13,418 nucleotides of DNA from a virus. Taxonomy: Duplodnaviria > Heunggongvirae > Uroviricota > Caudoviricetes. Position numbers and translations under genes: made by a program. This document shows, in pieces, positions 1-13,418 of the stretch. The stretch's first letter is position 1; each line of letters begins with the position of its first letter. Location of the stretch: IMG/VR virus record IMGVR_UViG_2778261416_000004, positions 1 to 13,418 of that record; one strand, written 5' to 3'. The notes below the pieces were generated by a model, which worked only from the letters and a program-made list of their open reading frames with translations, was not told the origin of the DNA and did not search any database.

Positions 1-558
1 ATGAATACAGCTATAACTTTTTCTAACGAGTCACCAAAAGTCTTTTTCAAAGATGGTCGCCTGGTTACCACCTCTCAAGCTGTTGCCGACTACTTCGATA
101 AACAACATAAACACGTTTTAGCTAAGATTGACACACTCGACTGCTCTCCCGAATTTACATCAGCCAACTTTTCGGCCGATGTTCAGACTGTCGAAATTGG
201 CAACGGCGCAGAACGTGAATCACGATGCTACCTGATCACAAAAGACGGCTTCATGTTCCTCGTAATGGGATTTACTGGCAAAAAAGCAGCCAGACTAAAA
301 GAAGCTTACATTGAAAAATTTAACGCAATGGAAGAAGAACTCCACAAACGTCCTCCTGCAGCACAAAACTCCCCCGCCCCAAATAATGGATGCGCATTAC
401 TGATCCACTTCGATAAACACGGTCAGGTCGAGTTCACAGAAAAAGTCCCCGCCGATGCGATGGTATGCACGCTGGAACGGTTTAAATTTTATCTGGAGCA
501 ACATGGGTGGATCGTTGCCCGTAAAGAACAATTGGTGGAAAGGTTGATGCGGTTTTAA
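1..558 (+). CDS. rha: Rha-family phage regulatory protein (Phage_pRha-like)
   Basis: 185-aa ORF starting at window position 1. N-terminal 'LVTTSQAVADYFDKQHKHVL' and the 'DGFMFLVMGFTGKKAARLKEAYIEKFNAME' block match the Rha signature as I recall it. Stop TAA at 556-558, followed by a hairpin terminator. Confidence 0.7.
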   Translation: MNTAITFSNESPKVFFKDGRLVTTSQAVADYFDKQHKHVLAKIDTLDCSPEFTSANFSADVQTVEIGNGAERESRCYLITKDGFMFLVMGFTGKKAARLKEAYIEKFNAMEEELHKRPPAAQNSPAPNNGCALLIHFDKHGQVEFTEKVPADAMVCTLERFKFYLEQHGWIVARKEQLVERLMRF

Positions 559-567
559 TGAATGCAA

Positions 568-598
568 AACCCCGGATGATCACCGGGGTTAATTTTAT
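568..598 (+). terminator. Rho-independent terminator-like hairpin after rha
   Basis: Perfect 8-bp stem aaccccgg/ccggggtt with 7-nt loop (568-590), followed by aattttat. Confidence 0.55.
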
Positions 599-919
599 CG
601 AGCGTGATTGCCGCTAATCGCCATCGCTCTGATTGAGCGTAAATCATTCAGGTTATTCAGTTCTTCCTTCTGCTCTCGCTGACGTCAATAAATCCCATCA
701 TTGCGATCAACCTCATCCTTAACCATTGATGCGAGCAGTTCTTCCAGTTTCTGCGCTGACAGCTTTACCTGGTGATCTTCAGCATCTTCCCGGGCTATTG
801 TGGTTCGCGCAGTGGCTGATTTTGCTGACATCACCACAGGGGGCAGACGGACCATTGAACCATGGCCTCCGGAACAAATAAGGGCAAAAATAACAACCAC
901 TATCGAAAGCTCACAAACT

Positions 920-1137
920 AACCGCAGCACGTTCCTGCATACGACGTGTCTGCGGCATAATCCCAATGATTACTCCCTGACAGGATTTGCAGGCCACTCA
1001 ATATCAGGTGCAGTTGATGTATCAACACGATTCAACAATACCCGATATTTATTCCATGCCTCCAGCAACGATCTTTCTTCCTCCGTTGCGATTTCCAGAT
1101 CTACAGCATCCTGCAGTGGCGCAATATACTCACTGAA
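920..1137. repeat. Direct repeat copy 1 (~215 bp, tfa 3'-end derived), left flank of methyltransferase island
   Basis: About 88% identical by eye to 1970-2187 in the same orientation. Covers the 3' end of the short tfa-like ORF and a downstream hairpin (922-955). Confidence 0.8.
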
Positions 1138-1239
1138 TTCCTGGATGTAGAACTGTGTGGTGACGGTCTTCCAGCCATTCGGCTCCTGCTGTATCGAAGC
1201 ATACCAGGCTATTTCAATATCGCTATGCTGCGGCAGCAT
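970..1239 (-). CDS. Short tail fibre assembly (Tfa)-like protein; C-terminal Tfa domain with unrelated 38-aa N-terminus
   Basis: 89-aa ORF. C-terminal ~50 aa ('[45 protein letters not shown]') near-identical to the C-terminus of the full tfa at 2019-2603. ATG at 1239 is preceded by an AAGGGG SD-like motif. Confidence 0.55.
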
Positions 1240-1295
1240 TTAACCCCTTGTAATTCATCGCCATAATTGATTTAATTCACAAATAAAACTATAAC

Positions 1296-1964
1296 ATGGT
1301 GAAATCAATGAAAAAAAACACAGATGATGGGGCTAAAATTTACACACCACTTACCCTAAAGCTTTATGACTGGTGGGTTTTGGGAGTATCAAATCGGCTT
1401 GCATGGGGATGTCCTACAAAGGAACACCTTCTTCCACACTTTCTGGAACATGTAGGTAACAACCATCTGGATATTGGTGTTGGAACTGGGTTTTACCTTA
1501 CTCACGTACCTGAGAGTAGTCTGATATCTTTAATGGATTTGAACGAAGCTAGCCTGAACGCGGCATCTACAAGGGCTGGGGAATCAAAAATTAAACATAA
1601 AATTAGCCATGATGTTTTTGAACCTTATCCCGCGGCGTTACATGGTCAATTTGATTCCATTTCCATGTTTTACCTTCTTCACTGCCTGCCTGGAAATATA
1701 TCTACAAAAAGCTGTGTAATACGCAATGCGGCGCAGGCCTTAACTGACGATGGAACTCTATACGGAGCCACAATTCTTGGCGATGGAGTTGTGCACAATA
1801 GCTTCGGTCAAAAACTGATGCGCATTTACAATCAGAAAGGCATCTTTTCAAACACAAAAGATTCCGAAGAAGGCTTAACACATATACTCTCAGAGCATTT
1901 CGAGAATGTTAAAACCAAGGTTCAAGGTACTGTAGTAATGTTTTCCGCTTCAGGGAAAAAATAG
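1296..1964 (+). CDS. Class I SAM-dependent methyltransferase (moron; substrate unknown)
   Basis: 222-aa ORF with motif I 'HLDIGVGTGFY', an acidic post-I residue ('LMDLNE') and motif II-like 'FDSISMFYLLHCLP'. AT-rich relative to neighbours. ATG at 1308, with a GGTGA SD-like motif 6 nt upstream, may be the true start. Stop TAG at 1962-1964. Confidence 0.75.
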   Translation: MVKSMKKNTDDGAKIYTPLTLKLYDWWVLGVSNRLAWGCPTKEHLLPHFLEHVGNNHLDIGVGTGFYLTHVPESSLISLMDLNEASLNAASTRAGESKIKHKISHDVFEPYPAALHGQFDSISMFYLLHCLPGNISTKSCVIRNAAQALTDDGTLYGATILGDGVVHNSFGQKLMRIYNQKGIFSNTKDSEEGLTHILSEHFENVKTKVQGTVVMFSASGKK

Positions 1965-1969
1965 CATCC

Positions 1970-2187
1970 AACCGCAGCACGTTCTTGCTTAAGACGTGCT
2001 GCGGCATAATCCCAATGATTACTCCCTGACAGGGTTCGTAGGCCACTCAATATCAGGTGCAGTTGATGTATCAACACGGTTCAGCAACACCCGATACTTT
2101 TTCCAGGCTTCCAGCAATGAGGTTTCTTCCTCCGTTGCAATTTCCAGATCTGCAGCATCCTGAAGCGGCGCAATATGCTCACTGGCT
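1970..2187. repeat. Direct repeat copy 2 (~215 bp), right flank of methyltransferase island; covers 3' end of tfa
   Basis: Aligns with 920-1137 by eye. Contains a perfect 11-bp-stem hairpin (1972-2004). Confidence 0.8.
1972..2004. terminator. Hairpin between convergent methyltransferase and tfa genes (candidate bidirectional terminator)
   Basis: ccgcagcacgt / acgtgctgcgg, 11-bp perfect stem with 11-nt loop, in the 54-bp gap between convergent stops. No clean U-tract, so terminator function is uncertain. Confidence 0.4.
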
Positions 2188-2603
2188 ACCTGCATCAGGT
2201 TGTTTTTTGTTTCTTCCGCCTCCCGGATCCGGAACAGTTTTTCTGCTTCCGTATCCTTCACCCAGGCTGTGCCGTTCCACTTCTGAAACTCCCCTTCCGG
2301 CGATAACCAGGTAACATTTTCCGGTAACGGACCGAGTTCAGAAATAAATAACTCGTCCCCTGACGCTACGTCATAAACCGTTTTACCCCGATGGTCTTCA
2401 ACGAGATGCCACGATGCCTCATCACTGTTGAAAACAGCCACAAAGCCAGCAGGAATATCTGGTGGTGCAATATCGGTACTGTTTGCTGGCAGACCTGTAT
2501 GAGGCGGAATATATGCGTCACCTTCACCAATAAATTCATTAGTTCCGGCCAGCAGATTATAAATTTTTATGGTCCGTGGTTGTTCACTCATTCTGAATGC
2601 CAT
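2019..2603 (-). CDS. tfa: Tail fibre assembly protein Tfa (lambda Tfa-like)
   Basis: 194-aa ORF; '[39 protein letters not shown]...' matches lambda Tfa as I recall it. Start ATG overlaps the stf stop (TAATG at 2601-2605), a typical stf-tfa coupling. Confidence 0.9.
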
Positions 2604-3976
2604 TATGCAAGCCTCACAATATAGTTAAATGCGATGTTTTTGACGGTGTTTTCCGCGTTACCCGCAGCGTTAACGGTGATGGTGTGTCCATGTGAACCAA
2701 TCGCAACGGAGTGCGTATGCGCACCAATACCTACAGTATGTGCATGTGCGCCAGAACTTGCTGCAGTACCAGACAGCGAGTGGGTATGAGCACCTGCTGA
2801 CTGTGTCTGAATACGTTGATAATACGATCTATAGGAAGAAGTCTCCGGGCTTACTTGATACTGTGAATTCTGGACATAAGTGAACCCACCGCCATCATAA
2901 AATGCTAACGCAGAACCGCCGCCTCCTGGCCAACGAATACCATTACCATGAGTATGAACACCGGCAGACCCCGTAGAGCCACTCAGACTGTGCGTATGCG
3001 CCCCGGTGTTATTCGTGGATTTAGTGCCGTAATCAAACGACGATGTGGTTTTCGTCCCCAAATCCGTACTGGATGCGCTGGCGCTGTGGGTGTGCGATTT
3101 AATGCCGTCCTGTTCCTGAGACAATACGGCCCGGCCACTGGCGGGTTTGCCCTTGATTGTCCAGCCGCGCATATCTGGAATAACACCTGAAGGATAGGCA
3201 ATAGCCAGTTTCGGATATGCTGCCTTATCAAACGTCTGCCCCTGCATGATTGCATAACCTGCAGGTGGTGTATCTGATGGCCACGGCAGCGGAACACCTG
3301 GCGGAAACGCTTCAATATTTGCCGAGCCGTCAAATTTTACGCCGTTAATTGTCCTTGCAGTTTGCAATTTGGTTGCTGTGCTTGCATTACCCGATAAAGA
3401 TCCAGTGATACCACCACTCGCGTTTAATTTAGTTGCAATTGTAACATTGCCAGTATGGTTACTAATTATAAACGGCCTTAAGCTATTGTGCGTACCAAGA
3501 CTGTTACCCGAATCTGTCAACATAAAATATGTGTTTGATCCATCATTTCGGATAAAGAATCCATAGTTGCCATAGGCAATACGCAGACCATTTGCTGACC
3601 TTGAAATAACCTCACCAGCAGCAGTTAAACCACCTGAAAGAGTCCCTCCAGTTAATGCCAATGCCCCAATATTTGAAGGGGTCAATGTGATATTTGCACT
3701 ACCATCAAATGACACACCGTTAATCGTTCTGGCTGCCTGAAGTTTCGTGGCGGTCGCAGCATTACCTGTAGTGTTTTGATTACCGGTAGCGTTGACTCCA
3801 GGCAAGTTGATATCTGCCGATCCATCAAATGCCACGCCCCCAATCTTACGTGCTGTCTTGATCTTGGTCGCAGTATCTGCGTTTCCGGTCAAATTACCAG
3901 TAACACTACCACCAACTTTTAGTCCATTACCGATGGACACCAACTCATGCAGGCGTCTCAGACGACCCACTGACAC
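2603..3976 (-). CDS. stf: Side tail fibre protein Stf, C-terminal portion (5'-truncated; GTG start, no SD)
   Basis: 457-aa ORF with repeated 'GNA(S/D)TATKLQ(T/A)ARTINGV(K/S)FDGSANI' fibre repeats and a His-rich 'GAHTHS' C-terminal region ending '[11 protein letters not shown]', like lambda Stf. The frame stays open upstream to 4066 with no ATG; first start-like codon is GTG at 3976. Confidence 0.8.
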
Positions 3977-4020
3977 TACCGGTGAGTTTAACGATACCTT
4001 CCATTTGACTGGCTCACTTT

Positions 4021-5874
4021 TTATGATGATGCCGGTGCATTTATCTCCAGCACCAGACTTTCTATCTCAACGCCATACGTTGCATTTTTGGTAATATCCG
4101 TCAGCGTCAGTGCATTTAGTCCCACTGTCAGACTGTCTTTTATGACCTGGAATGCCGGGCCAGCCACTCCATTCAGTTTCGGAGTAACCGTGGCACTGCC
4201 GGCGGTGAACACCAGCTCCAGCGTCTGCCAGTCGTTACTGTAATTCCCGAACTCGCCCAACTTTGTGTTTCCGGCTTTCTTGTGATGCATCAGATTCAGT
4301 TTGCCGTCTGTGGTCTGGGTGAAGAACGACATCAGGAACGGGTTACCAGTCCCGGTCATCGCCACGACGTCAGGTAACGCTACATCGGTATACAGATAAA
4401 TTCCCAGACCGAACTGGTTGTTGGTCAGTGCGCCTGACAGTCGAAACTTACAGCTCAGTCTGCCACCCCGTGTCAGCAGGGAGACTGCGTCATCCACCGG
4501 GCGCGTCAGGGACCAGGCTTTATTGCTCTGCTTGGTGATCTTAAATACACCATCTGACAACTGAATTCCGCCATTCTTAATGCTCCAGCCCTGCGCAGCA
4601 GCATCTCCGGCTGTCGGCAACAGGGAGATTGTGCGTACGGATGCATCTTCAGACGGCCCCGATGGCGTGTCGCCGCCGGGCGAGGGTTTGATTTCCGGTG
4701 CCTTACCACTAATGAAGGCTAAGGTGCGACCGGCTACGTTCAGAATAGCAGTTGCCATACGATCGGGAATAATGCCACGACGCGCCCATGAGCTGAAATG
4801 CGTCGGGCGATTTGATGATACCCAGTTTTTGTTCGTTCGGGATGCCGAACCGTAATAACCAGACCCGGCAATATCAGGATCTTCTGACGGGTTGTTTGTC
4901 GGTGTATTAACTCCGCTACCATCGGTCATAAAGGGAACAAAATAAATCTGCTGGGATTCTTTACCTTTATATGCACCATATACCACTTCATATTGCGTAC
5001 CGTGTTCTTGTTTCCACGCGTATGTCGTGTCGCCACAAATCCAGGGGACTGATGCCGGACTTCCACCGTGACACTGCGCTGCCAGCCCGGCAAGGTCAGC
5101 ACGGAACTGCTGTACCATTGCAAGAAATGCTGCTGGCTGCTGGGCGTAACTGGCATTCGTCATATCGAATTCCCCCTGCATCCAGCATATCGCCAGCAAA
5201 ACGTTTTTCGGGTTTTTCTGCAATGCTGCCTTCGTGCGGAAAAGCAGATCCTGATATAACGGCTTACCCACTCCCCAGCGAGCCGAATCCTGACTGGCTC
5301 CCGTGGACTCGCTGAATGTCCCCTCCGTGCCCTGGGTGAATGCCGAACCACCACGACAGCATGGTACCAGCAGGATCCCCGCATTATTAGGGATATACGG
5401 AAGCAGTTTTTTGGCAATATGTAAGCCCTGTCCGACACAGCCGTACTGCCCTTTGCTCAGGTCAGCCCGGGGATGGTTAATCGTACTCATATCCTGAACA
5501 TCATGCAGACAATGGTCAGCAGGAATGATGTCGTTAAATACGCATACTTCACCACCGGGAGTCACTGTGTTACGACGGGCCAGTTGCTTAATGCGCGGAT
5601 GGGGCGCATCGTATGAATCCGGAAGCGGAAGCCCTTCACCGTAAGCCATGGCATTGGATTGCCCGGCCAGTACGATGACGTAGTACCACTCCGGCTCAGT
5701 TGCACCACTGACGACCACATCACCTTCTGCTGCAATCGCCTGCATCAGGGTATAAGGGGTTATGGCCACCGGACTACCAAACGGCTGCCAGCCCTCCTTC
5801 AGTTTTTGTGTCAGTCGTTTCGCAAGGTCTGACGGCGATGCCGCCCTGACCACGTCATAGTGTTTAAATGCCAT
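4021..5874 (-). CDS. Prophage sialate O-acetylesterase (NanS-p-like; DUF1737 + SGNH/SASA esterase + C-terminal domain)
   Basis: 617-aa ORF. '[16 protein letters not shown]' is the SGNH block I motif (GQSN). N-terminus '[21 protein letters not shown]' is the DUF1737-type start seen in EHEC prophage NanS-p esterases. GGAGG SD 4 nt before the ATG. Confidence 0.8.
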
Positions 5875-6067
5875 GAATCCTCCCGGGCGGGATAATGTTG
5901 TGAGTCAGATAAGGAGCAGGCTGAAGTCCGGAAGTTACAGGACAATGGCAGAAGGGAGACTACAGCCCGCAATTCGAAAAAGACCGCGCAGTTGCGCAGA
6001 GTGATTACTATGGGGTATTATTCGCCAGCTGAAATATTACTTCACGTTTTATTGTTTATTCCTTGCC

Positions 6068-6096
6068 GCCCGCGTCTCCCAGCGCGGGCTTTTTTT
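6068..6096 (+). terminator. Strong Rho-independent terminator on the plus strand (orphan)
   Basis: 7-bp GC stem gcccgcg/cgcgggc with 8-nt loop, followed by a T7 run (6090-6096). No plus-strand gene lies upstream. Confidence 0.6.
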
Positions 6097-6104
6097 GTCC
6101 ATAA

Positions 6105-6340
6105 GAAAGCCCCTCCGGAGAGGGGCTAAAGCCGCGTATCTGTATCATCATGCACATGGTGCCGGGTGCCTCCCGGTGAGTTCAGCCCGGTGCCACTAAA
6201 CCCGCGTCATTCTCGTTTTGATAATCAGAGATTATACCGTCACCAGTCGCCCCTCCGCTCAGGGGGATTCACCATGCGAAATTTTTTTAACAAATGCCCA
6301 GTCTGACAGGCAACTGTCAACTTACTGAATTGTGAGCAAC
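6105..6340. repeat. Non-coding direct repeat module A (~235 bp)
   Basis: Shares with module B a perfect 20-nt palindrome agcccctccggagaggggct (6108-6127), 'gcatggtgccgggtgcctcccggtga', 'gcccctccgc.cagggggattcaccatgc' and 'ctgaattgtgag' blocks. Also carries TTGACA and TATAAT hexamers on the minus strand and a CTGACAG-N4-CTGTCAA inverted repeat. Confidence 0.7.
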
Positions 6341-6591
6341 ATAGCATTTAACGGGGAACCTGTTTTCTGCAGTAAAAAGGCCCACCGGAGCGGATGGGCC
6401 TGGAAGGATAGCGGTCATGTGATGCCGGTTTCCCGGTAACTCAGCACCGGTATCTGAGTCAACGTTTTCTCTACTGGGTCATTTCCGATACGCCCTGCCT
6501 GCTGACAGGCTTTCATCACATCTGAAAATATAGCACCCTGACTGATACTGTAGTACCTAAGGTTCCAGAAACTGTGATGTATCCGGCACAG

Positions 6592-6808
6592 AAAAGCCCC
6601 TCCGGAGAGGGGCTGGAGAGTGGCGCTATGTGCCATTGCATGGTGCCGGGTGCCTCCCGGTGAATTCAGTACCAGCACCTGAATCCGCGATTATCCCATA
6701 TACCTACTCGCTGATTGCCCCTCCGCACAGGGGGATTCACCATGCCAGTTTCTTTTAACAAACTCCCCGCAAACCAGACAACAGTCAACCGCCTGAATTG
6801 TGAGACAT
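6592..6808. repeat. Non-coding direct repeat module B (~217 bp)
   Basis: Second copy of module A (roughly 75-80% identity by eye). The palindromic hairpin at 6595-6614 is followed on the minus strand by TTTTCTG. Confidence 0.7.
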
Positions 6809-6810
6809 TT

Positions 6811-6834
6811 AAAAAAAAGCCCGCAAAAGCGAGC
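6811..6834 (-). terminator. Rho-independent terminator of the tRNA operon (minus strand)
   Basis: On the minus strand: GCUCGC-UUUU-GCGGGC hairpin (one G.U pair) followed by U8, immediately 3' of the last tRNA. Confidence 0.6.
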
Positions 6835-6849
6835 CAGGGAAAATAAGTG

Positions 6850-6926
6850 TGGCGCGTTGTACTGGATTCGAACCAGTGACCGATTGCTTAGAAGGCAATT
6901 GCTCTGTCCGGCTGAGCTAACAACGC
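6850..6926 (-). tRNA. argO: tRNA-Arg (anticodon UCU)
   Basis: Manual fold of the reverse complement: acceptor GCGTTGT/ACAACGC, D-arm GCTC...GAGC, anticodon loop CTTCTAA, T-arm ACTGG-TTCGAAT-CCAGT, discriminator G, CCA; 77 nt. Confidence 0.85.
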
Positions 6927-6939
6927 AGGATACAGATAA

Positions 6940-7016
6940 TGGACCGCCTTCGGGGACCCGAACTCCGCGCAACCAGCTTCGAAGGCTGGCGCTCTTTCCT
7001 GATGAGCTAATGGCGG
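6940..7016 (-). tRNA. argN: tRNA-Arg-like (anticodon UCG), possibly degenerate
   Basis: Cloverleaf with anticodon loop CTTCGAA and 3' CCA, but an A.A mismatch in the acceptor stem, an A.C mismatch in the T-stem and an atypical T-loop TTCGGGT. Confidence 0.55.
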
Positions 7017-7023
7017 TATGTGA

Positions 7024-7099
7024 TGGTGGCCCTTGCTGGATTTGAACCAGCGACCTGGCGATTATGAGTCGCTCGCTCTCACCACTGAGCTAAAGGGCC
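7024..7099 (-). tRNA. ileZ: tRNA-Ile2/Met (anticodon CAU; ileX-like, likely lysidine-modified Ile)
   Basis: Reverse complement GGCCCTTTAGCTCAGTGGTGAGAGC...CTCATAA...GCTGGTTCAAATCCAGCAAGGGCCACCA gives a canonical 76-nt cloverleaf, closely resembling E. coli ileX as I recall it. Confidence 0.85.
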
Positions 7100-7108
7100 G
7101 GGAGCAGA

Positions 7109-7137
7109 ATAATAATGGTGCGTAATTAATTCTGCAA
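7109..7137 (-). promoter_or_regulatory. Candidate sigma70 promoter of the tRNA operon
   Basis: Minus strand: TTGCAG (-35, 7137-7132), 17-bp spacer, TATTAT (-10, 7114-7109), about 9 nt before the tRNA-Ile 5' end. Confidence 0.45.
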
Positions 7138-7148
7138 TCTCATCCGTT

Positions 7149-7577
7149 TCAAACGATTAAATCCTGAACTTCCCTGACTGTCTGCTCAAAACGTCCGGTC
7201 TCCAGTTCAACGCCAATCGCACGACGCCCGAGCGCCAGTGCCGCTTTTACCGTTGAACCTGAGCCCATAAAAAAATCTGCAACCAGGTCACCCGGACGAC
7301 TGCTTGCGCTGATTATCTGCTGCAGCATTTCTGCCGGTTTTTCGCACGGATGTTTCCCGGGATAGAACTGCACCGGTTTATGTGTCCACACATCCGTGTA
7401 CGGCACCTGCGCCGTCACACCAAAATACCGCCGCAGATGCTTATATTCACTCTGCAGCTCCACATACTGCCGGTTCAGTGACGTATACGTATCCACCAGC
7501 TGGTGGTGGGGCTTTTCCAGTTCACCGCGCTGATGTTTCTCTTCTGCTACCAGAACAGGTCGAAGTAATACCCGCAC
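7149..7577 (-). CDS. DNA (N6-adenine/N4-cytosine) methyltransferase, C-terminal portion (truncated or frameshifted)
   Basis: 142-aa ORF with 'GKHPCEKPAEMLQQIISASSRPGDLVADFFMGSGSTVKAALALGRRAIGVE', i.e. the HPxxKP and FxGSGST (SAM-binding) motifs of beta-class MTases such as YhdJ. No DPPY motif in this ORF; GTG start abuts the stop of the upstream ORF in another frame. Confidence 0.7.
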   Translation of the reverse strand: MRVLLRPVLVAEEKHQRGELEKPHHQLVDTYTSLNRQYVELQSEYKHLRRYFGVTAQVPYTDVWTHKPVQFYPGKHPCEKPAEMLQQIISASSRPGDLVADFFMGSGSTVKAALALGRRAIGVELETGRFEQTVREVQDLIV

Positions 7578-7578
7578 G

Positions 7579-7851
7579 TTACCTCCAGATGCGTTGCTGG
7601 AATGTGCGGGACGGACGCGGTGGGCGTTCAGAGTAAGGAAGCCTGACGGAGATTATCCAGTGACGATAATCGAGGCTGAGGGCTTTCTTAATCTCGTATC
7701 CGCGTCTGCGGTAGTTATGAATTAGCCATTCGGCCTGTTCTTCAGTACATGGTGGGTGTTGGTACCAGTCGGTTTTAAATGCGTGTGAACGCCGCCCATG
7801 CCGGATGGCAAGGTCGGTATCAGAATTGTGAAATTTGGTTTTGTGCGCCAT
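7579..7851 (-). CDS. Hypothetical protein; possibly the displaced N-terminal part of the DNA methyltransferase
   Basis: 90-aa ORF ending 1 nt before the MTase fragment start. Contains 'DWYQHPPC' where a DPPY-type motif would be expected, but this is not a convincing match. Confidence 0.4.
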   Translation of the reverse strand: MAHKTKFHNSDTDLAIRHGRRSHAFKTDWYQHPPCTEEQAEWLIHNYRRRGYEIKKALSLDYRHWIISVRLPYSERPPRPSRTFQQRIWR

Positions 7852-7922
7852 CTGTTTTCTCTGCTGGCGCAGCAGGTGTCAGGTGTTCAGGCTGACGTGC
7901 GAATTGTAAACCAGAATGCCAG

Positions 7923-7950
7923 AAAAAAACAAAACCCGCCGAACCGGGTT
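7923..7950 (-). terminator. Rho-independent terminator downstream of hok (minus strand)
   Basis: Minus strand: AACCCG-GUUCGG-CGGGUU hairpin followed by UUGUUUUUUU, about 70 nt 3' of the hok stop. Confidence 0.55.
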
Positions 7951-8018
7951 AAGTGCGGGTGCGTTGAGGATGCCTGACACATCAGAGGTGGCGAGGGATT
8001 TCTCCCCCGCCAGGTCTC

Positions 8019-8174
8019 TTACTCCTCAGGTTCGTAAGCTGTGAAGACAGCGACCTCCGTCTGGCCGGTTCGGAGTCGTACCTCGCAGAGGTCTTTCCTC
8101 GTTACCAGTGCCGTCACTATGACGGTTAAACAGATGACGATCAGGGCGATTAACATCGCCTTTTGCTGCTTCAT
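8019..8174 (-). CDS. hok: Hok/Gef-family type I toxin (HokD/RelF-like small membrane protein)
   Basis: 51-aa product 'MKQQKAMLIALIVICLTVIVTALVTRKDLCEVRLRTGQTEVAVFTAYEPEE' aligns with plasmid R1 Hok ([38 protein letters not shown]). ATG at 8174 has an AAGGGGAAG SD; an in-frame upstream extension to 8231 (70-aa ORF in the track) could be a mok-like leader ORF. Confidence 0.85.
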   Translation of the reverse strand: MKQQKAMLIALIVICLTVIVTALVTRKDLCEVRLRTGQTEVAVFTAYEPEE

Positions 8175-8411
8175 AGCCTGCTTCCCCTTGCCTTTCGGCA
8201 CGTAAGAGGCTAACCTACATTTGTGAGACATAGATTGGGCCTCAGATTAATGTTAAGCGTCTTGCAGGACGCGAAATGTTAACTGGGGCTTTTCTCTATC
8301 TGCCTTTCAGTGTTCATGCCTGAGACAGATAGCCTCAAGCACCCGCAGCCATTCTACTTAACTCACGTCACCTCGCCAATATGAAATCAATCAGAAAGGT
8401 GATCCATAAAA

Positions 8412-9098
8412 TCACTCCTTCTCTTCTTTTCCGTAGTGGAGTTGGCCAATTTTGATAAGAGGGCGTCCCTGAGATTTGCGGTGTAGATTGGTATCGCGCA
8501 GAGAATACACACAGCCACAATATTCCTGCTGATAGAATTTTTCGCGCTTGCTGATTTCAATCATACGGGACGAGCCGCCCTGCTTGCGCCAGTTATAATC
8601 CCAGTACACCATACCCGGATAATGCGCAACAGCTCGCCGCCCACACTCGTTAACCTGCTGCATATTTTTCCAGCGTGAAATGCCCAGTGAACTGCTGATC
8701 ACACTGAAACCATTTTCAGCAGCGTACAACGCTGTCCGCTCAAAACGCATGTCAAAACACATGGTACAACGGATCCCCCTCTCAGGCTCCCATTCCATTC
8801 CTTTGGCACGTTCAAACCAGTTGTCGGTGTCGTAATCAGCATCGATAAACGGCACGCCGTGTTGTTCAGCAAAGCGAATATTTTCATCCTTACGAATTAA
8901 ATACTCTTTCTGAGGATGAATGTTCGGGTTGTAGAAAAAGATGGTGTAGTCGATTCCCGAGGCCTGAAGCGCCTCCATCACTTCACCGGAACATGGAGCA
9001 CAGCAAGAGTGCAGTAGTAGTTTGTTTGCCCCGTTTGGGAGCTCCAATTTAGGCCGTTTGAAATCAGCAATAGTCATAAATATTTTTATTGGGGTCAT
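8412..9098 (-). CDS. queH: QueH-like protein (DUF208; putative epoxyqueuosine reductase)
   Basis: 228-aa ORF with motifs '[11 protein letters not shown]', '[13 protein letters not shown]', 'CTMCF' and 'CGC', which I recognise as the DUF208/QueH Fe-S signature. 153-bp intergenic region upstream; weak SD. Confidence 0.7.
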
Positions 9099-9251
9099 GA
9101 AAATAGCACAGAGTGTAGCATCAGAGCAGGGCTATCGGGAATATATGTCTAAATCTGGTAATATCTGGTTTTGACGCAAAGCGGACAACCACGCTGGCTC
9201 TACCCTGCGCCATGAAAATGTCAATTCACATCTGAACTAATGCTCTTTAAT

Positions 9252-9677
9252 CTAGTAACGTCTAAAATACCTAACATTTCCTTGATAAAATGCCAGTACA
9301 CGCTGCATAGCTTCGCTCTTCCGGCACTCGCGACAGATTATATTCAGGCGCCTGTCGTAGCGGCGTATTTCGCCGTCTGGTAACGACCAGATAAGGTCCG
9401 GATCAACCACTGCAGGTTTCTTCACCTTTGCCCTTGAGAGTTTTTTGCGAGCATTTTGCCAGTCCTTACGCGCCTGTTCAGACGGGAATAACCCGTAACC
9501 AGAGTTGTATACATCGCCACTGGCAACCAGCTCTCTGGCCAGAACGCTCATCAGATATCTTGTTGCCCCAGTTTTAGTTTCCAGTTGTCGTAACGTCTCG
9601 CGCCCACTCTGGCGTACGAGTTCAACAACCTGCCCTTTAATTTTCTCCCGCTCTTCTTGTGTAAAAACTTTTGCCAC
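9252..9677 (-). CDS. Hypothetical phage protein (141 aa; possible winged-HTH region)
   Basis: GTG start at 9677 preceded by AGGAGGG SD 4 nt upstream. 'TLRQLETKTGATRYLMSVLAREL' is HTH-like. Not recognised as Q, P or NinB. Confidence 0.6.
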   Translation of the reverse strand: MAKVFTQEEREKIKGQVVELVRQSGRETLRQLETKTGATRYLMSVLARELVASGDVYNSGYGLFPSEQARKDWQNARKKLSRAKVKKPAVVDPDLIWSLPDGEIRRYDRRLNIICRECRKSEAMQRVLAFYQGNVRYFRRY

Positions 9678-9717
9678 AAGCCCTCCTGAAAATTACCTCA
9701 TGACCAGAAATTAACAC

Positions 9718-10695
9718 TTACCCCCTGAAGCCCGGCGGAATTTCAGTGTCCGGTTCAGAAATGTGATTCACGCAACGCTGCGCAGGCGAACGCCCCAGGC
9801 GGATAACCAGTTCATCCCATTTTTCCCGGAGTTTTGCCGGACTCATGATGTTTTTTACCCAGAACGAATCCCGCTGGAGACGCCCAAACATTTCACAAAT
9901 TTGTCTGTGAGTTCTGCCATCCAGCATCCGCATTGTGCGAACGTCATTGGCCCATGCTGTCCAGTTGGGTTCTTTCGGTCTAGTGATCTCGCCATCATCG
10001 CTGGCCGCCTGCTCGTAAAGACTCACGATTCGTCCCCAGATCCACTGTGCGCACACCAAATCTTCCTGACTTCCCCACTGGCGTTTTTTCGCACTGAACA
10101 CAACCGCGTCAGGGTGTCGGGTTAAAAAATCCTGTTCAGCCGTCTGCGGGTCCGGTTGCGAAGCGTCCGGACAAGAAGATCTTTTATCTGACGGATCAGG
10201 TTTTAATACTGACGGATCGGGGTCAATCATCGCCCCCCTAATCGGCAGTTTTTTATCAACAGTTGATCCATCAAAATTTGACGGGTCAACCGTTGAGGGG
10301 TCAATATTTGACGGGTCAACTGTTAACGGGTCATTTTTTGCCGGGCTAATTTTTCTTTTCGGTTTATATGACTCACGCGCCGCCGCCGCAGCTGCTTCGA
10401 GTTTTTCCACATTAAGCCGATAGATATTGCTTACATTACGCCCACCGACCTTACGCTCTTCCTTCGTCAGCCAGCCCTCTTTCGCCAGTTCTGCAATAGC
10501 CGATTTCACTGTGGATTCACTTCTTGCACCGATCTGACGCCGGATAGTTTCAATGGCAGGCCATGACACGCCCTCGTCATTGCTGTAGTCTGCAAGACGG
10601 GCCATAACCGCCACCCTGGATAAGATCATGCCGGTGAAGGCGCACCCTTCCCAGACAAGACCATGAAGCTTGCTGCTCATAAAACCCCCGAACAC
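9718..10695 (-). CDS. Phage replication initiator (O-like; N-terminal winged helix, internal iteron-encoded repeats)
   Basis: 325-aa ORF; N-terminus 'AFTGMILSRVAVMARLADYSNDEGVSWPAIETIRRQIGARSESTVKSAIAELAKEGWL' is a typical replication-initiator wHTH. Internal 'DPSNIDPSTVDPSNFDGSTVD' repeats are encoded by DNA iterons. Likely true start is ATG at 10680 (GGGGGT SD); the track start is GTG at 10695. Confidence 0.8.
   Translation of the reverse strand: MFGGFMSSKLHGLVWEGCAFTGMILSRVAVMARLADYSNDEGVSWPAIETIRRQIGARSESTVKSAIAELAKEGWLTKEERKVGGRNVSNIYRLNVEKLEAAAAAARESYKPKRKISPAKNDPLTVDPSNIDPSTVDPSNFDGSTVDKKLPIRGAMIDPDPSVLKPDPSDKRSSCPDASQPDPQTAEQDFLTRHPDAVVFSAKKRQWGSQEDLVCAQWIWGRIVSLYEQAASDDGEITRPKEPNWTAWANDVRTMRMLDGRTHRQICEMFGRLQRDSFWVKNIMSPAKLREKWDELVIRLGRSPAQRCVNHISEPDTEIPPGFRG
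10185..10370. repeat. Candidate phage origin of replication: iterons plus adjacent A/T-rich stretch inside the initiator gene
   Basis: Four 15-bp-periodic units TTGACGGGTCAAC / TTGAGGGGTCAAT / TTGACGGGTCAAC / TTAACGGGTCATT at 10278, 10293, 10308 and 10323, plus degenerate copies at 10188-10228, followed by the A/T-rich 10336-10370. Confidence 0.6.
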
Positions 10696-10702
10696 CGTGC
10701 TT

Positions 10703-11020
10703 TTAGTGCATCACCACAGCATTCCCTGCCGGGCCGCCGCGATTCATCTGGTCATACAAAACAACCGCTGACGCAACAAAATCATCGACATCCTTCACCA
10801 GCCGATCCCTCCGTTCGACGATCTCACGATAATATTCAGAACTGTGGCTGCGCATACGGGCCACCAGCAAAGGCGGCATCGCCTTTTCGATCGCCGGTAA
10901 CAGAGCCTGCATTTTTTCAACAGCATCAGGGGTGTCTTTCTCTACCCAGCGGAAAATTTTCTGGGTATTGCGAGCCAGGGCTTCCGGATGGCTGTCGTCA
11001 TACAGTTCTGGGAACGTCAT
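10703..11020 (-). CDS. Hypothetical protein (about 105 aa) upstream of the replication initiator
   Basis: Plausible amino-acid composition, whereas the overlapping plus frame is a low-complexity P/S/H-rich read-through. ATG at 11020 (track start is TTG at 11026); weak SD. Function unknown. Confidence 0.5.
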   Translation of the reverse strand: MTFPELYDDSHPEALARNTQKIFRWVEKDTPDAVEKMQALLPAIEKAMPPLLVARMRSHSSEYYREIVERRDRLVKDVDDFVASAVVLYDQMNRGGPAGNAVVMH

Positions 11021-11064
11021 ACCCAACTCAAAATAAGCCTGGGTTAAGGGGAAATGAGGTCAGC

Positions 11065-11220
11065 ATGGATACTATCGATCTTGGCAACAGCGAATCTCTG
11101 GTATGTGGCGTGTTCCCCAACCAGGACGGTACGTTCACCGCGATGACGTATAACAAAAGCAAAACGTTTAAAACCGAAAATGGTGCCCGTCGCTGGCTGG
11201 AAAGAAACTCAGGTGAGTGA
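11065..11220 (+). CDS. ydfA: YdfA-like small protein (51 aa), first gene of dicB-type operon
   Basis: ATG at 11065 with GAGG SD. 'MDTIDLGNSESLVCGVFPNQDGTFTAMTYNKSKTFKTENGARRWLERNSGE'. The sizes and order 51-42-72-DicF-62-62 match the Qin dicB operon. It is the C-terminal end of the track's spurious 185-aa ORF. Confidence 0.7.
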   Translation: MDTIDLGNSESLVCGVFPNQDGTFTAMTYNKSKTFKTENGARRWLERNSGE

Positions 11221-11221
11221 T

Positions 11222-11350
11222 ATGGATTTCGACACAATCATGGAAAAGGCTTACGAAGAATACTTCGAAGGTCTTGCCGAAGGCGAAGAAGCTCTCAGCT
11301 TCAACGAATTTAAACAGGCGCTTTCCAGTTCGGCAAAATCTAACGGCTGA
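11222..11350 (+). CDS. ydfB: YdfB-like small protein (42 aa)
   Basis: ATG at 11222, 1 nt after the ydfA stop, with AGGTGAG SD. 'MDFDTIMEKAYEEYFEGLAEGEEALSFNEFKQALSSSAKSNG'. Absent from the ORF track because it is under 60 aa. Confidence 0.65.
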   Translation: MDFDTIMEKAYEEYFEGLAEGEEALSFNEFKQALSSSAKSNG

Positions 11351-11379
11351 TAAGCGAAACAGCACCGCGAGGAATCAGT

Positions 11380-11598
11380 ATGCAGAAACGAGAACCCGTC
11401 ATCATCGCGCCAGACTATACCGATGATGAACTTTATGAGTGGATGCACCAGAAAATTAATGCAGCGCAGGATCTGAAATGGGCCAATGAAGCCAGGGCTA
11501 AGCAGGCTGAAAATCTGTCCGCTCTGGAGCAGGATATCACTAATCTGGAAAAAGCAGCGGCATTAAGCATTGCCAGAATGATTACATACCCGCGTTAA
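11380..11598 (+). CDS. ydfC: YdfC-like small protein (72 aa)
   Basis: ATG with GAGGA SD; position and size match ydfC of the dicB operon. Confidence 0.7.
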   Translation: MQKREPVIIAPDYTDDELYEWMHQKINAAQDLKWANEARAKQAENLSALEQDITNLEKAAALSIARMITYPR

Positions 11599-11939
11599 TA
11601 GCTAACCAACGAAGCTAAGGTTGGTAATTAAGGAGTTCTCCACGGGTCAGGTGGAGTGCGTGCGCCGGACACGGGTGAGCATCCGGCACTGACAGCTTAC
11701 TGAAAGGATATGTCCCTGAAAAGTCAGGGCATAACGCGAAAGCGCACGGCGAAATTGGTCTCTCTGTACGGTGTCGTTAAATTTAGTTCGACCGTGCGCT
11801 TCCGGTTGTGGCACTCCGCGAAATGGCGCGGCGGTAAGTATGGCTGGGGTTTCCTCCATTGCTCCAGAAAATGCACCGGGTTGTCAGGTTGACCATACGC
11901 TTAAGTGACAACCCCGCTACAACGCCCTCTGTTATCAAT

Positions 11940-11997
11940 TTTCTGGTGACATTTGGCGGTATCAGTTTTACTCCGTGACTGCTCTGCCGCCCTTTTT
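11940..11997 (+). ncRNA. dicF: DicF small regulatory RNA (ftsZ-targeting sRNA of the dicB operon)
   Basis: 'tttctggtgacatttggcggtatcagttttactccgtgactgctctgccgcccttttt' matches the DicF sequence as I recall it, including the terminator stem GGCGG...CCGCC plus U-run. Confidence 0.75.
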
Positions 11998-12175
11998 AAA
12001 GTGAATTTTGTGATGCGGTGAATGCGGCTATGCGCACGCGGAACAGTTAAAGCAGTAAGGCGGTATTTTACGGGCGTAACGAGCATCAACTAACCCGGCG
12101 TTAATTGTTAACTGGTTAACGTCACCTGGAGGCACCAGGCACTGCATCACAAAATTCATTGTTGAGGACGCGATA

Positions 12176-12364
12176 ATGGAAACGTTATTACCAAACGTTA
12201 ATACGTCTGAAGGTTGTTTTGATATTGGTGTTCTGCTCAGTAACCGGGAGTTTACTGAAGATGCCATTAATATGAGGAAATATGAGCCTTATCTGCTCAA
12301 TGATAATTCCATACTTTCCCGAATTGCTCTTCTTGAACTTGGTATTTTCGGAGAACGTCAATGA
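12176..12364 (+). CDS. dicB: Cell division inhibitor DicB homolog (62 aa)
   Basis: 'METLLPNVNTSEGCFDIGVLLSNREFTEDAINMRK...' matches the DicB N-terminal half as I recall it. GAGGA SD. The C-terminal half looks divergent. Confidence 0.8.
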   Translation: METLLPNVNTSEGCFDIGVLLSNREFTEDAINMRKYEPYLLNDNSILSRIALLELGIFGERQ

Positions 12365-12549
12365 CTTCAGCATTTGCACTGATGATGACGGTTTTTCTTA
12401 TAACGGGTGAATCACAGAATGTGATTACCGGAATTTATGCAAGTAAAGAATCCTGCCTCCAGGCAAGAGACGAGCAAAAAATTTCTGGTGAATGCCTCCC
12501 GCTAAAAAAAGTATCGCTGTACCTGAATAACGAAACACCGGCTGGATAA
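12361..12549 (+). CDS. ydfD: YdfD-like small protein with N-terminal hydrophobic segment (62 aa)
   Basis: ATGA start/stop overlap with dicB and GGAGA SD. 'MTSAFALMMTVFLITG' is a TM/signal-like segment followed by a hydrophilic tail with two Cys. Confidence 0.7.
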   Translation: MTSAFALMMTVFLITGESQNVITGIYASKESCLQARDEQKISGECLPLKKVSLYLNNETPAG

Positions 12550-12644
12550 CCCTCCAGCCATATTAACACCATACCAACGGATTAAAAATGCCAGCAATGG
12601 CAGGGATTCGTTCACCCTGAAATCTGTAATGAGGTTAAAACAAA

Positions 12645-13418
12645 ATGAGTAAGGTCTTTATTTGCGCTGCTATTCCTGATGAACAGGCCATAAAAGAAGA
12701 TAGCGCTGTTGCGGTGGCCACTGCCATTGAAGCCGGTGATGAGCGTCGCGCACGCGCAAAATTTCATTGGCAATTTCTGGAGCAATTCCCTGCAGCTCAG
12801 GACTGCGCTTATAAATTTCTTGTTTGCGAGGATAAACCCGGTATACCCCGCCCTGCCCTCGATTCCTGGGATGCTGAATATATGCAGGAAAACCGCTGGG
12901 ATGAGGAGTCTGCTTCCTTTGTCCCGGTTGAGACTGAATCAGATCCGATGAACGTCACTTTTGACAAGCTGGCCCCTGAAGTACAGAACGCTGTCATGGT
13001 TAAGTTCGACACATGTGAAAACATCACCGTTGATATGGTTATTAGCGCACAGGAATTGTTGCAGGAAGACATGGCAACATTCGACGGACATATCGTTGAA
13101 GCGTTGATGAAAATGCCAGAAGTTAACGCCATGTACGCTCTCTGGCCTGGTGATGTGGATGCCGGAAACATTGACGGCAGCATCCATCGCTGGGCAAAAA
13201 ATGAAGTTATCGACAACGACCGCGAAGACTGGAAGCGTATCTCGGCATCAATGCGCAAACAGCCTGATGCCCTTCGCTACGACCGCCAGACTATTTTTGG
13301 CCTTGTCCGTGAGCGTCCGATCGACATTCACAAAGATCCCATAGCACTGAACAAATATATCTGCGAATACCTGACGACAAAGGGCGTGTTTGAGAATGAA
13401 GAAACAGACCTGGGCACT
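12645..13418 (+). CDS. ydfE: YdfE-like protein, 3'-partial (runs off the window end; at least 258 aa)
   Basis: Translated by hand from ATG 12645 (GAGG SD 9 nt upstream): 'MSKVFICAAIPDEQAIKEDSAVAVATAIEAGDERRARAKFHWQFLEQFPAAQD...'. Open to position 13418 with no stop; not in the ORF track because it has no stop in the window. Confidence 0.7.
   Translation, partial: MSKVFICAAIPDEQAIKEDSAVAVATAIEAGDERRARAKFHWQFLEQFPAAQDCAYKFLVCEDKPGIPRPALDSWDAEYMQENRWDEESASFVPVETESDPMNVTFDKLAPEVQNAVMVKFDTCENITVDMVISAQELLQEDMATFDGHIVEALMKMPEVNAMYALWPGDVDAGNIDGSIHRWAKNEVIDNDREDWKRISASMRKQPDALRYDRQTIFGLVRERPIDIHKDPIALNKYICEYLTTKGVFENEETDLGT

Follow-up and report, generated by a model that had tools for sequence, protein, structure and literature searches.

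Three tandem units of the STnc100 scaffold, probably small RNA genes, in the tRNA–esterase interval of a lambdoid prophage remnant

Layout of the tRNA–esterase interval

The window, i.e., the whole stretch of DNA analyzed here, comprises 13,418 nucleotides of a Caudoviricetes record in IMG/VR (IMGVR_UViG_2778261416_000004, positions 1 to 13,418). The genes around the array described below all lie on the minus strand and follow one another in the order tRNAs, terminator, array and esterase. Upstream of the array, ARAGORN detects a cluster of tRNA-Ile2(CAT), tRNA-Arg(TCG) and tRNA-Arg(TCT) (6850–7099); an intrinsic terminator of this ileZ-argN-argO-type cluster (6810–6836; stem 6835–6818 followed by T8) ends the upstream transcription unit. 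The downstream gene (4021–5874) encodes a 617-aa carbohydrate (sialate O-acetyl) esterase of DUF1737/SASA/DUF6645 composition, as assigned by Pfam and RefSeq. The array occupies the ‘moron’ slot in the late region of a lambdoid prophage, on the late-gene strand and between tRNA genes and the SASA esterase gene. The prophage itself is a remnant with a truncated DNA methylase and with the esterase gene abutting tail-fibre genes; hok/sok, QueH and DicF come next.

The first-pass annotation of this interval described two non-coding direct-repeat modules, A and B. They do align, with 80% mean column identity over about 260 columns, and share blocks of 88 nt at 80% identity and 31 nt at 97%, as well as a 22-nt terminator block at 100%. 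The count of two has to be revised: the interval 6521–6371 between A and B is a diverged copy, termed here unit M, giving three homologous units. Minus-strand hairpins followed by T-runs are located at 6127–6108, 6614–6595 and 6401–6378, and terminator-like sites are frequent in the region (10 observed versus 1.2 ± 1.0 in shuffled sequences). In both modules a hairpin precedes the U-rich tract, as initially described; it has an 8-bp stem and a 4-nt loop. The 20-mer agcccctccggagaggggct that forms it had been called a perfect palindrome; its 8-bp inverted repeat (AGCCCCTC/GAGGGGCT) is indeed perfect, but the 4-nt loop is non-palindromic. An additional minus-strand hairpin reported at 6378–6402 is real as well and represents the terminator of unit M. 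None of the listed ORFs is common to the A and B copies, as had been stated; the only ORFs listed at the array, 6415–6678 and 6691–6972 (both on the minus strand), each straddle different units.

All three units read on the minus strand. Unit B (6588–6745) opens its closing helix at G6745 and ends in a terminator hairpin (6614–6595) and a U-tract (6594–6588). Unit M (6371–6521) has its terminator hairpin at 6401–6378 and its U-tract at 6377–6373. Unit A (6101–6277) starts its closing helix at G6277 and carries the terminator hairpin and U-tract at 6127–6108 and 6107–6101, respectively. The closing helices are formed by GCAUGGUG and CACCAUGC in unit B and by AUGUGAUG and CAUCACAU in unit M; the linkers ahead of the terminators are GCAUGAUGAUACAGAUACGCGGCUUU in unit A, AAUGGCACAUAGCGCCACUCUCC in unit B and GACCGCUAUCCUUCC in unit M.

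The left edge of the repeat region, as first drawn (6060–6096), does not belong to the modules. A terminator scan assigns the hairpin at 6068–6089, followed by T7 (6090–6096), to the plus strand, where it is the intrinsic terminator of a separate sRNA gene (5915–6096) with a promoter-like site at 5868–5896. This plus-strand sRNA is antisense to the 5′ leader of the esterase gene. The first-pass annotation had overlooked both unit M and the sRNA on the opposite strand.

Family membership and common fold

Units A and B are full-length members of Rfam family STnc100 (RF02076; gathering score, 47 bits), scoring 165.4 bits (6306–6097, model positions 1–206) and 136.3 bits (6774–6584, model positions 1–206), respectively. 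Our own covariance model R1, built from A, B, M, three units of strain 4/2-1 and PasD2, gives 167.3 bits for unit B and 133.8 bits for unit A. It also gives 115.5 bits for unit M, a score that is not independent because M was in the model seed. Against Rfam STnc100, unit M aligns over its full length at a permissive threshold (6545–6372, minus strand; 30.1 bits; E-value of 6.5e-4 in a 3.8-kb search and 4.4e-5 in a 261-nt search). Since this lies below the gathering score, we file unit M as a diverged relative of the scaffold and not as a member of RF02076.

Judged by its sequence, unit B is an orthologue of EcOnc05, an sRNA experimentally validated in E. coli O157 Sakai. Flanks included, it shares 98.5% identity with the EcOnc05 locus of Sakai prophage Sp4, and the published EcOnc05 Northern probe matches exactly at 6682–6716, antisense to the minus-strand RNA. 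In Sakai, EcOnc05 yields an Hfq-CRAC peak and a Northern band of ~222 nt (Tree et al. 2014, PMC4104026), and EcOnc27 yields bands of 235/247 nt. The probes for EcOnc05, EcOnc06 and EcOnc27 all fall within matches of the family model in sense orientation; those for EcOnc04 and EcOnc13 had no exact match in the fetched loci. The small-RNA genes considered as one option in the first-pass annotation are therefore the right reading of A and B, which lie on the minus strand with their own intrinsic terminators and match RF02076 at full length with high scores. They are STnc100-family prophage sRNA genes, and the family is already known; being copies of a known element, the repeats are real but ordinary, and the finding amounts to a correct observation of something already described.

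The family is indeed well known from its Rfam model, Hfq and Northern data, and reports on EDL933, vesicles and disease. In EDL933, eleven STnc100 copies are listed, all of them with RNA-seq reads and one confirmed by Northern blotting, and ribosome footprints are reported on some. STnc100 has been detected in outer-membrane vesicles of STEC, where it is located 75 nt downstream of stx2, and its variants were flagged as predictive of HUS. In EHEC, members of the family rank among the more abundant RNAs bound by Hfq; EcOnc06/27 and PasD1/2 are also expressed and Hfq-associated. EcOnc27 (sRNA103) adjoins the 3′ end of stx2B; its reported effects, on fimZ and espA transcripts, come from overexpression, and we found no validated direct target in the literature examined. 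The units described here share with STnc100/EcOnc05/06/27 (sRNA103) the fold, the orientation with respect to the late genes, the moron position between tRNA and esterase genes, and the Rho-independent terminator. In contrast to Sakai Sp4, where the slot holds one unit (B), it holds three tandem units here, and EcOnc05 and EcOnc27 have other linkers than units A and M.

Similar modules are present in other lambdoid prophages, as the first-pass annotation proposed to check: Sakai Sp4, where the same tRNAs, annotated as ileZ/argN/argO, precede the same esterase gene, PP2 of E2348/69, and strain 4/2-1 all have the same layout. For a broader comparison, R1 was run on 91 loci, i.e., 80 IMG/VR contigs retrieved by a 20-nt pattern, 7 species-representative genome loci and reference loci. 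No Salmonella copies were among the 7 loci from the species-representative genome scan, and with so few loci from this pattern scan the breadth across species is thinly sampled.

Among 116 matches (74 distinct), 95.4% of the cells are paired. Changes on both sides occur at 26 of 38 pairs (227 cells, versus 10–34 in slid controls), and none of 500 shuffles reaches the observed level; the check for covariation proposed at the outset yields a strong signal across 74 distinct relatives. All eight pairs of one internal helix vary on both sides, as do all eight of the terminator. In this alignment, itself fitted to the model, the structure of the STnc100/EcOnc/PasD scaffold is conserved; the pattern used to retrieve the viral loci lies in one conserved hairpin, so the conservation of that hairpin appears inflated. 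Columns of the closing helix and of two hairpins have the lowest entropy; the highest values are those of one internal arm and of the linker that connects the closing helix to the terminator.

Minimum free energy (MFE) folding of B, M and A, each alone, returns the same architecture with a largely unpaired linker. Unit M matches unit B helix for helix, from the closing helix and hairpins through the unpaired linker to the terminator. Unit A adopts the family fold when given the ends of the model; with slightly long ends its CCCCUC/GAGGGG elements pair and a non-family MFE structure results.

The linker before the terminator occurs in 39 distinct versions among the 116 units, and those of A, B and M are mutually unrelated; it diversifies while the scaffold stays constant. 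In units M and B it ends in C/U-rich tracts (CCUUCC and CUCUCC, respectively), which could pair with ribosome-binding sites. In PasD, the seed UGUGAG, as inferred from its RIL-seq targets, sits in the equivalent linker, and we consider the hypervariable single-stranded linker the likely seed of the present units as well.

These observations bear on whether the RNAs matter at all. Four consecutive minus-strand terminators separate the tRNA genes from the esterase gene, and the units might act in cis as a terminator stack silencing the esterase and lysis genes in the lysogen, with the RNAs as by-products; this would also agree with the fact that the effects reported for EcOnc27/sRNA103 are those of overexpression and that the literature examined contains no validated direct target. 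However, a terminator needs only ~30 nt, yet 120 nt of upstream scaffold are conserved with compensatory changes. Moreover, the linker diversifies on a constant scaffold, family members are abundant among Hfq-bound RNAs of EHEC, and PasD has RIL-seq partners. We therefore regard a purely cis-acting role as unlikely; blocking of read-through is likely a side effect of what we take to be genes for trans-acting RNAs.

PasD1 and PasD2 of EPEC E2348/69, homologues of EcOnc13 (Pearl Mizrahi 2021; Zhu, Shabalina, Storz 2026 preprint), offer a further comparison. PasD2 is a 172-nt RNA with Northern validation and RIL-seq targets. PasD shares the scaffold (closing helix GCAUGGUG.../...CCAUGC, GAAUCC-hairpin and GGGAGGC hairpin), the position directly upstream of the SASA esterase gene, the promoter geometry and the site of the seed in the linker ahead of the terminator. 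Unlike these features, its linker and seed (UGUGAG) are different, and BLAST similarity to the units of the window extends only across the first 30–40 nt; PasD2 is not reported by Rfam STnc100 at the gathering score.

Upstream elements and RNA ends

Directly upstream of GCAUGGUG, units A and B share the position-conserved element TTG(C/T)CT-N18-TG(T)TAAAA(A/G). Together with PasD2 they follow one geometry: TTG(C/T/A)CT, 18 nt, TAAAA(A/G), and then 6–7 nt to the first G; in A and B, a TG stands two bases ahead of the −10-like hexamer. The upstream region of unit B (6746–6804, minus strand) contains CTCACAATTCAG (6804–6793), TTGACT (6788–6783), TTGTCT (6781–6776) and TGTTAAAAG (6760–6752). That of unit A (6278–6336, minus strand) is arranged alike, with CTCACAATTCAG (6336–6325), TTGACA (6320–6315), TTGCCT (6313–6308) and TGTTAAAAA (6292–6284). 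Unit M carries a putative extended −10 element of consensus sequence, TGCTATATT (6527–6535, minus strand), which ends 5 nt ahead of the closing helix, at the same position as TGTTAAAA(A/G) of A and B, and is kept in a variant of M described below.

We infer that the upstream elements of A, B and M are promoters. Their position is conserved across the family, as seen in 63 distinct upstream sequences of relatives, and diverged relatives have canonical TTGACC-N17/18-TAACTT promoters that stop 4–5 nt short of the closing helix. In both A (TAAAAA) and B (TAAAAG), the −10-like hexamer is without the usual T at −7, and a simple sigma-70 scan returned no minus-strand promoter in the region. The TTGACA/TATAAT-like hexamers pointed out in the initial description exist. 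However, TATAAT at about 6238–6233 sits within the RNA body, and TTGACA at 6320–6315 was rejected as a −35 element, having no acceptable −10 hexamer 16–18 nt downstream. The latter is also replaced in relatives (GCGATT or TTGATG), whereas the proximal TTG(C/T)CT is kept.

RNA-seq coverage places the 5′ end of PasD2 at GCAUGGUGAAUCC, in agreement with the size seen on Northern blots, and the same block opens units A (6277) and B (6745). Together with the upstream geometry, this speaks for a separate promoter for each unit and for transcription starting at the closing helix, taken here as the putative 5′ end. Lengths predicted from this start are 158–181 nt, as against Northern sizes of 222–247 nt in Sakai, and the Rfam STnc100 seed begins ~29 nt further upstream than the closing helix; the primary 5′ end may therefore lie upstream and be followed by processing, or the terminators may be leaky. 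A TCACA(A/T)TTCA block conserved at about −58 of STnc100-type units hints at shared control by a transcription factor. Its position resembles that of a class I CRP site; if it is read as one, A, B and M have a good half-site only on the right.

Late-operon orientation, promoter-like hexamers and intrinsic terminators would also fit duplicated pR′-tR′-like units, the other option of the first-pass annotation, in which short leader transcripts would be read through by a Q antiterminator, as with lambda 6S RNA or StxS, the sRNA from the 5′ end of stxAB that arises by early termination of the Shiga toxin transcript (PMC7873438). However, the lambda interval 43800–45300 reaches at best 1 bit (E ~2) with the family model and has no match to Rfam STnc100. 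The position does not fit either: the units follow the tRNA genes with their terminator instead of adjoining a Q gene, no Q-family ORF is among the 10 window ORFs scanned, the relative PasD2 is located >1.2 kb downstream of Q in E2348/69, and in Stx phages the place of the family member is 3′ of stxB and not pR′. Visual inspection shows no clear −10-like pause element after the presumed starts. With a covarying multi-helix fold of 150–180 nt, neither placed beside a Q gene nor similar to the lambda leader, the units have next to no chance of being such leaders, and we return to them as sRNA genes.

The array and its relation to known systems

We consider it highly probable that the interval 6100–6810 is a head-to-tail minus-strand array of three paralogous sRNA genes on the STnc100/EcOnc05-06-27/PasD scaffold, their products being most likely Hfq-associated and trans-acting. 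Each unit would form its own transcription unit, with an extended −10 promoter-like element, a structured body of ~150–180 nt and a Rho-independent terminator. In the predicted RNA, an 8-bp closing helix would sequester the 5′ end and enclose a multibranch core, in which two of the four hairpins are nearly invariant, to be followed by a single-stranded, hypervariable linker of 15–26 nt. The conserved scaffold would confer stability and chaperone binding, and the variable, partly C/U-rich linker beside the terminator would serve as the seed of an Hfq-associated, trans-acting base-pairing regulator; since the linker varies, each of the three copies would act on different targets. The four minus-strand terminators in succession should also, as a side effect, keep unmodified transcription out of the esterase and late genes. 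With the plus-strand sRNA included, the interval should be annotated with four ncRNA genes.

Decay of the locus deserves consideration, as the prophage is heavily deleted and its copies of the sRNA genes could accordingly be silent. If they are inactive relics carried passively in a defective prophage, it would come as no surprise that RefSeq annotates only a pseudogene fragment at the identical locus, and the many identical copies in other genomes may reflect clonal descent. Against this, the promoter-like elements are intact and the folds and terminators complete in all three units. The same B-M-A array is found in six IMG/VR contigs with near-identical hairpin spacing, match scores and linkers, and 1271 bp around the array are 100% identical in many complete E. 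coli genomes from different sources. A 76%-identical three-unit array, X-M′-B′, in strain 4/2-1 and one contig also retains all folds. We thus deem inactivity improbable, marginally more so than a cis-acting terminator stack, and favor an array of probably functional sRNA genes.

Sequence of the M type is carried by 673 of 5426 complete E. coli genomes (12%) in two versions, one 100% and the other 85% identical to that of the window, and is unannotated in all of them. In the 85%-identical variant, M′, both changed hairpins re-form with different sequences. Arrays are found elsewhere too: 14 of 90 loci with a strong match (E < 1e-7) carry 2–4 such units, 2 of these 14 including non-adjacent copies 0.7–1.7 kb apart, and one contig has four units, all over the Rfam threshold. 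As a recent survey of Pas sRNAs describes the copies of PasA and PasD as distal and not tandem (Zhu, Shabalina, Storz 2026 preprint), adjacent arrays in the STnc100 branch are a small addition. A relative retaining only the scaffold sits between dicF and dicB in Qin-type prophages, including that of K-12.

Paralogous sRNA genes that sit side by side and have separate promoters and terminators are familiar from OmrA/OmrB and PrrF1/PrrF2, and in OmrA/B the seed end is common to both copies. In the array described here, by contrast, the copies have a conserved scaffold in common and differ in the presumed seed; neither pair has sequence or structural kinship to the array. The Zhu et al. preprint refers to the two pairs as tandem duplicates.

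Taken jointly, these features invite a more general proposal, which we put forward tentatively and expect somewhat more readily to fail than to hold in full: the STnc100 fold as a reusable chassis, with M as a third branch, a cis leader at dicF-dicB and shared transcription-factor control. Lambdoid prophages may graft different seed linkers onto this conserved, 5′-end-sequestering scaffold and assemble it, at the moron site, into arrays of 2–4 independently promoted units. On such a reading, unit M would be an unnamed branch beside STnc100 proper and PasD, invisible to Rfam-based annotation, and the scaffold would serve in cis as well, as the dicF-dicB leader of Qin-type prophages, including that of K-12.

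Late regions of prophages are dense with Hfq-binding sRNAs linking phage genes to host regulation, and little biology is added here beyond the work that established this (Tree et al. 2014; Pearl Mizrahi et al. 2021; Zhu et al. 2026). The increments are tandem arrays with differing likely seeds, the sub-threshold third branch M and the scaffold-only copy in the dicB leader. These increments could guide seed-swap and target-mapping work on a family for which validated direct targets are scarce.

At its downstream end, the array converges on the plus-strand sRNA, with the end of unit A facing that of 5915–6096. This sRNA is 92.9% identical over 182 nt to the EPEC candidate E2348C_1409.E2348C_1408.IGR, for which its authors give EcOnc08/21/42 as EHEC homologues; the EcOnc08/21/42 probe had no match in the window at up to 3 mismatches. 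In Sakai Sp4, EcOnc08/21 occupies the equivalent position on the opposite strand, directly after EcOnc05. The anti-sRNA class is defined by a 51–60-nt RNA with a conserved ~42-nt 3′ domain on the strand opposite an STnc100-type sRNA. Identity of the plus-strand RNA with AsxR (RF02703) or AgvB (RF02702) was considered and rejected, as Rfam gave no match to either in 3900–7700 at E ≤ 5.

Unit A and the plus-strand sRNA together are a known ‘convergent sRNA dyad’, an arrangement described at the moron site of at least eight Sakai prophages (PMC4104026, PMC7873438). As in the dyads AsxR/EcOnc27, AgvB/EcOnc06 and EcOnc05/EcOnc08-21, the two RNAs meet terminator to terminator upstream of the esterase ORF. 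The dyad of the window differs in that its antisense partner is of the long EcOnc08/21/42 type (~180 nt or more), not a 51–60-nt anti-sRNA, and in that its sense side is expanded to three units.

A conserved block upstream of the STnc100 units

The block CTCACAATTCAG lies on the minus strand at 6336-6325 for unit A and at 6804-6793 for unit B, with a counterpart at about 6578-6567 for unit M. This places it approximately 58-47 nt 5′ of the presumed RNA start. It is kept in nearly all STnc100-type units, even those with diverged flanks, and is missing from the PasD/EcOnc04-type and distant relatives. Since TGTTA-N6 precedes the block in several relatives, it resembles a CRP site in class I position, making it a candidate for this function.

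A perfect 13-nt inverted repeat, GCGGGCTTTTTTT/AAAAAAAGCCCGC (6084-6096 and 6812-6824), flanks the entire three-unit array on both sides; its arms are the 3′ halves of two terminators, those of the convergent plus-strand sRNA and of the tRNA cluster. Four successive STnc100 units are found in another IMG/VR contig, downstream of two tRNAs (IMGVR_UViG_2861053794_000003, 2269-3350; locus L010). All four exceed the Rfam gathering score, and for two of them the model alignment shows no recognisable terminator hairpin.

Relatives of the scaffold

A scaffold-only relative of STnc100 lies on the plus strand at 12004-12160, in the interval that separates DicF (11941-11992) from the start codon of dicB (12177). 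Its closing helix is present, as is the GGAGGCACC hairpin, which has a compensatory CCUGG/CCAGG stem; a terminator is lacking. It reaches 35.7 bits with our own covariance model; Rfam STnc100 aligns to it over model positions 21-154 at 30.9 bits, which falls short of the gathering score. The Qin prophage of K-12 carries the same element (NC_000913, 1649455-1649593; 34.7 bits).

A distant scaffold branch scoring 38-46 bits is represented in IMG/VR contigs by loci L033 (5881-6053), L012, L018, L062-L064, L072 and L073. Their linkers, e.g., CAACAACAAUACAGUUUCAAAUUCCUUGA, are CA-rich at the start, similar to the GcvB target consensus CACAACA that is mimicked by AgvB, hinting that these RNAs may possibly act as sponges.

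The esterase start and the remnant prophage

The promoter-like site of the plus-strand sRNA (ATGCCA-17-GATAAT, plus strand, 5868-5896) overlaps the start codon of the opposite-strand esterase gene (5872-5874), and this sRNA covers the entire esterase 5′ leader in antisense. Such an arrangement suggests that the two genes may interfere with each other.

The prophage in the window is a remnant (regions concerned: 2019-5874, 7149-7577, 8019-8344 and 8412-9098). It contains no lysis genes, and its DNA methylase is cut down to 142 aa. The esterase gene is directly followed by tail-fibre and tail-fibre-assembly genes, the latter containing an Rfam IS009 match at 2062-2260. Upstream there is a hok/sok module, along with a gene for QueH.
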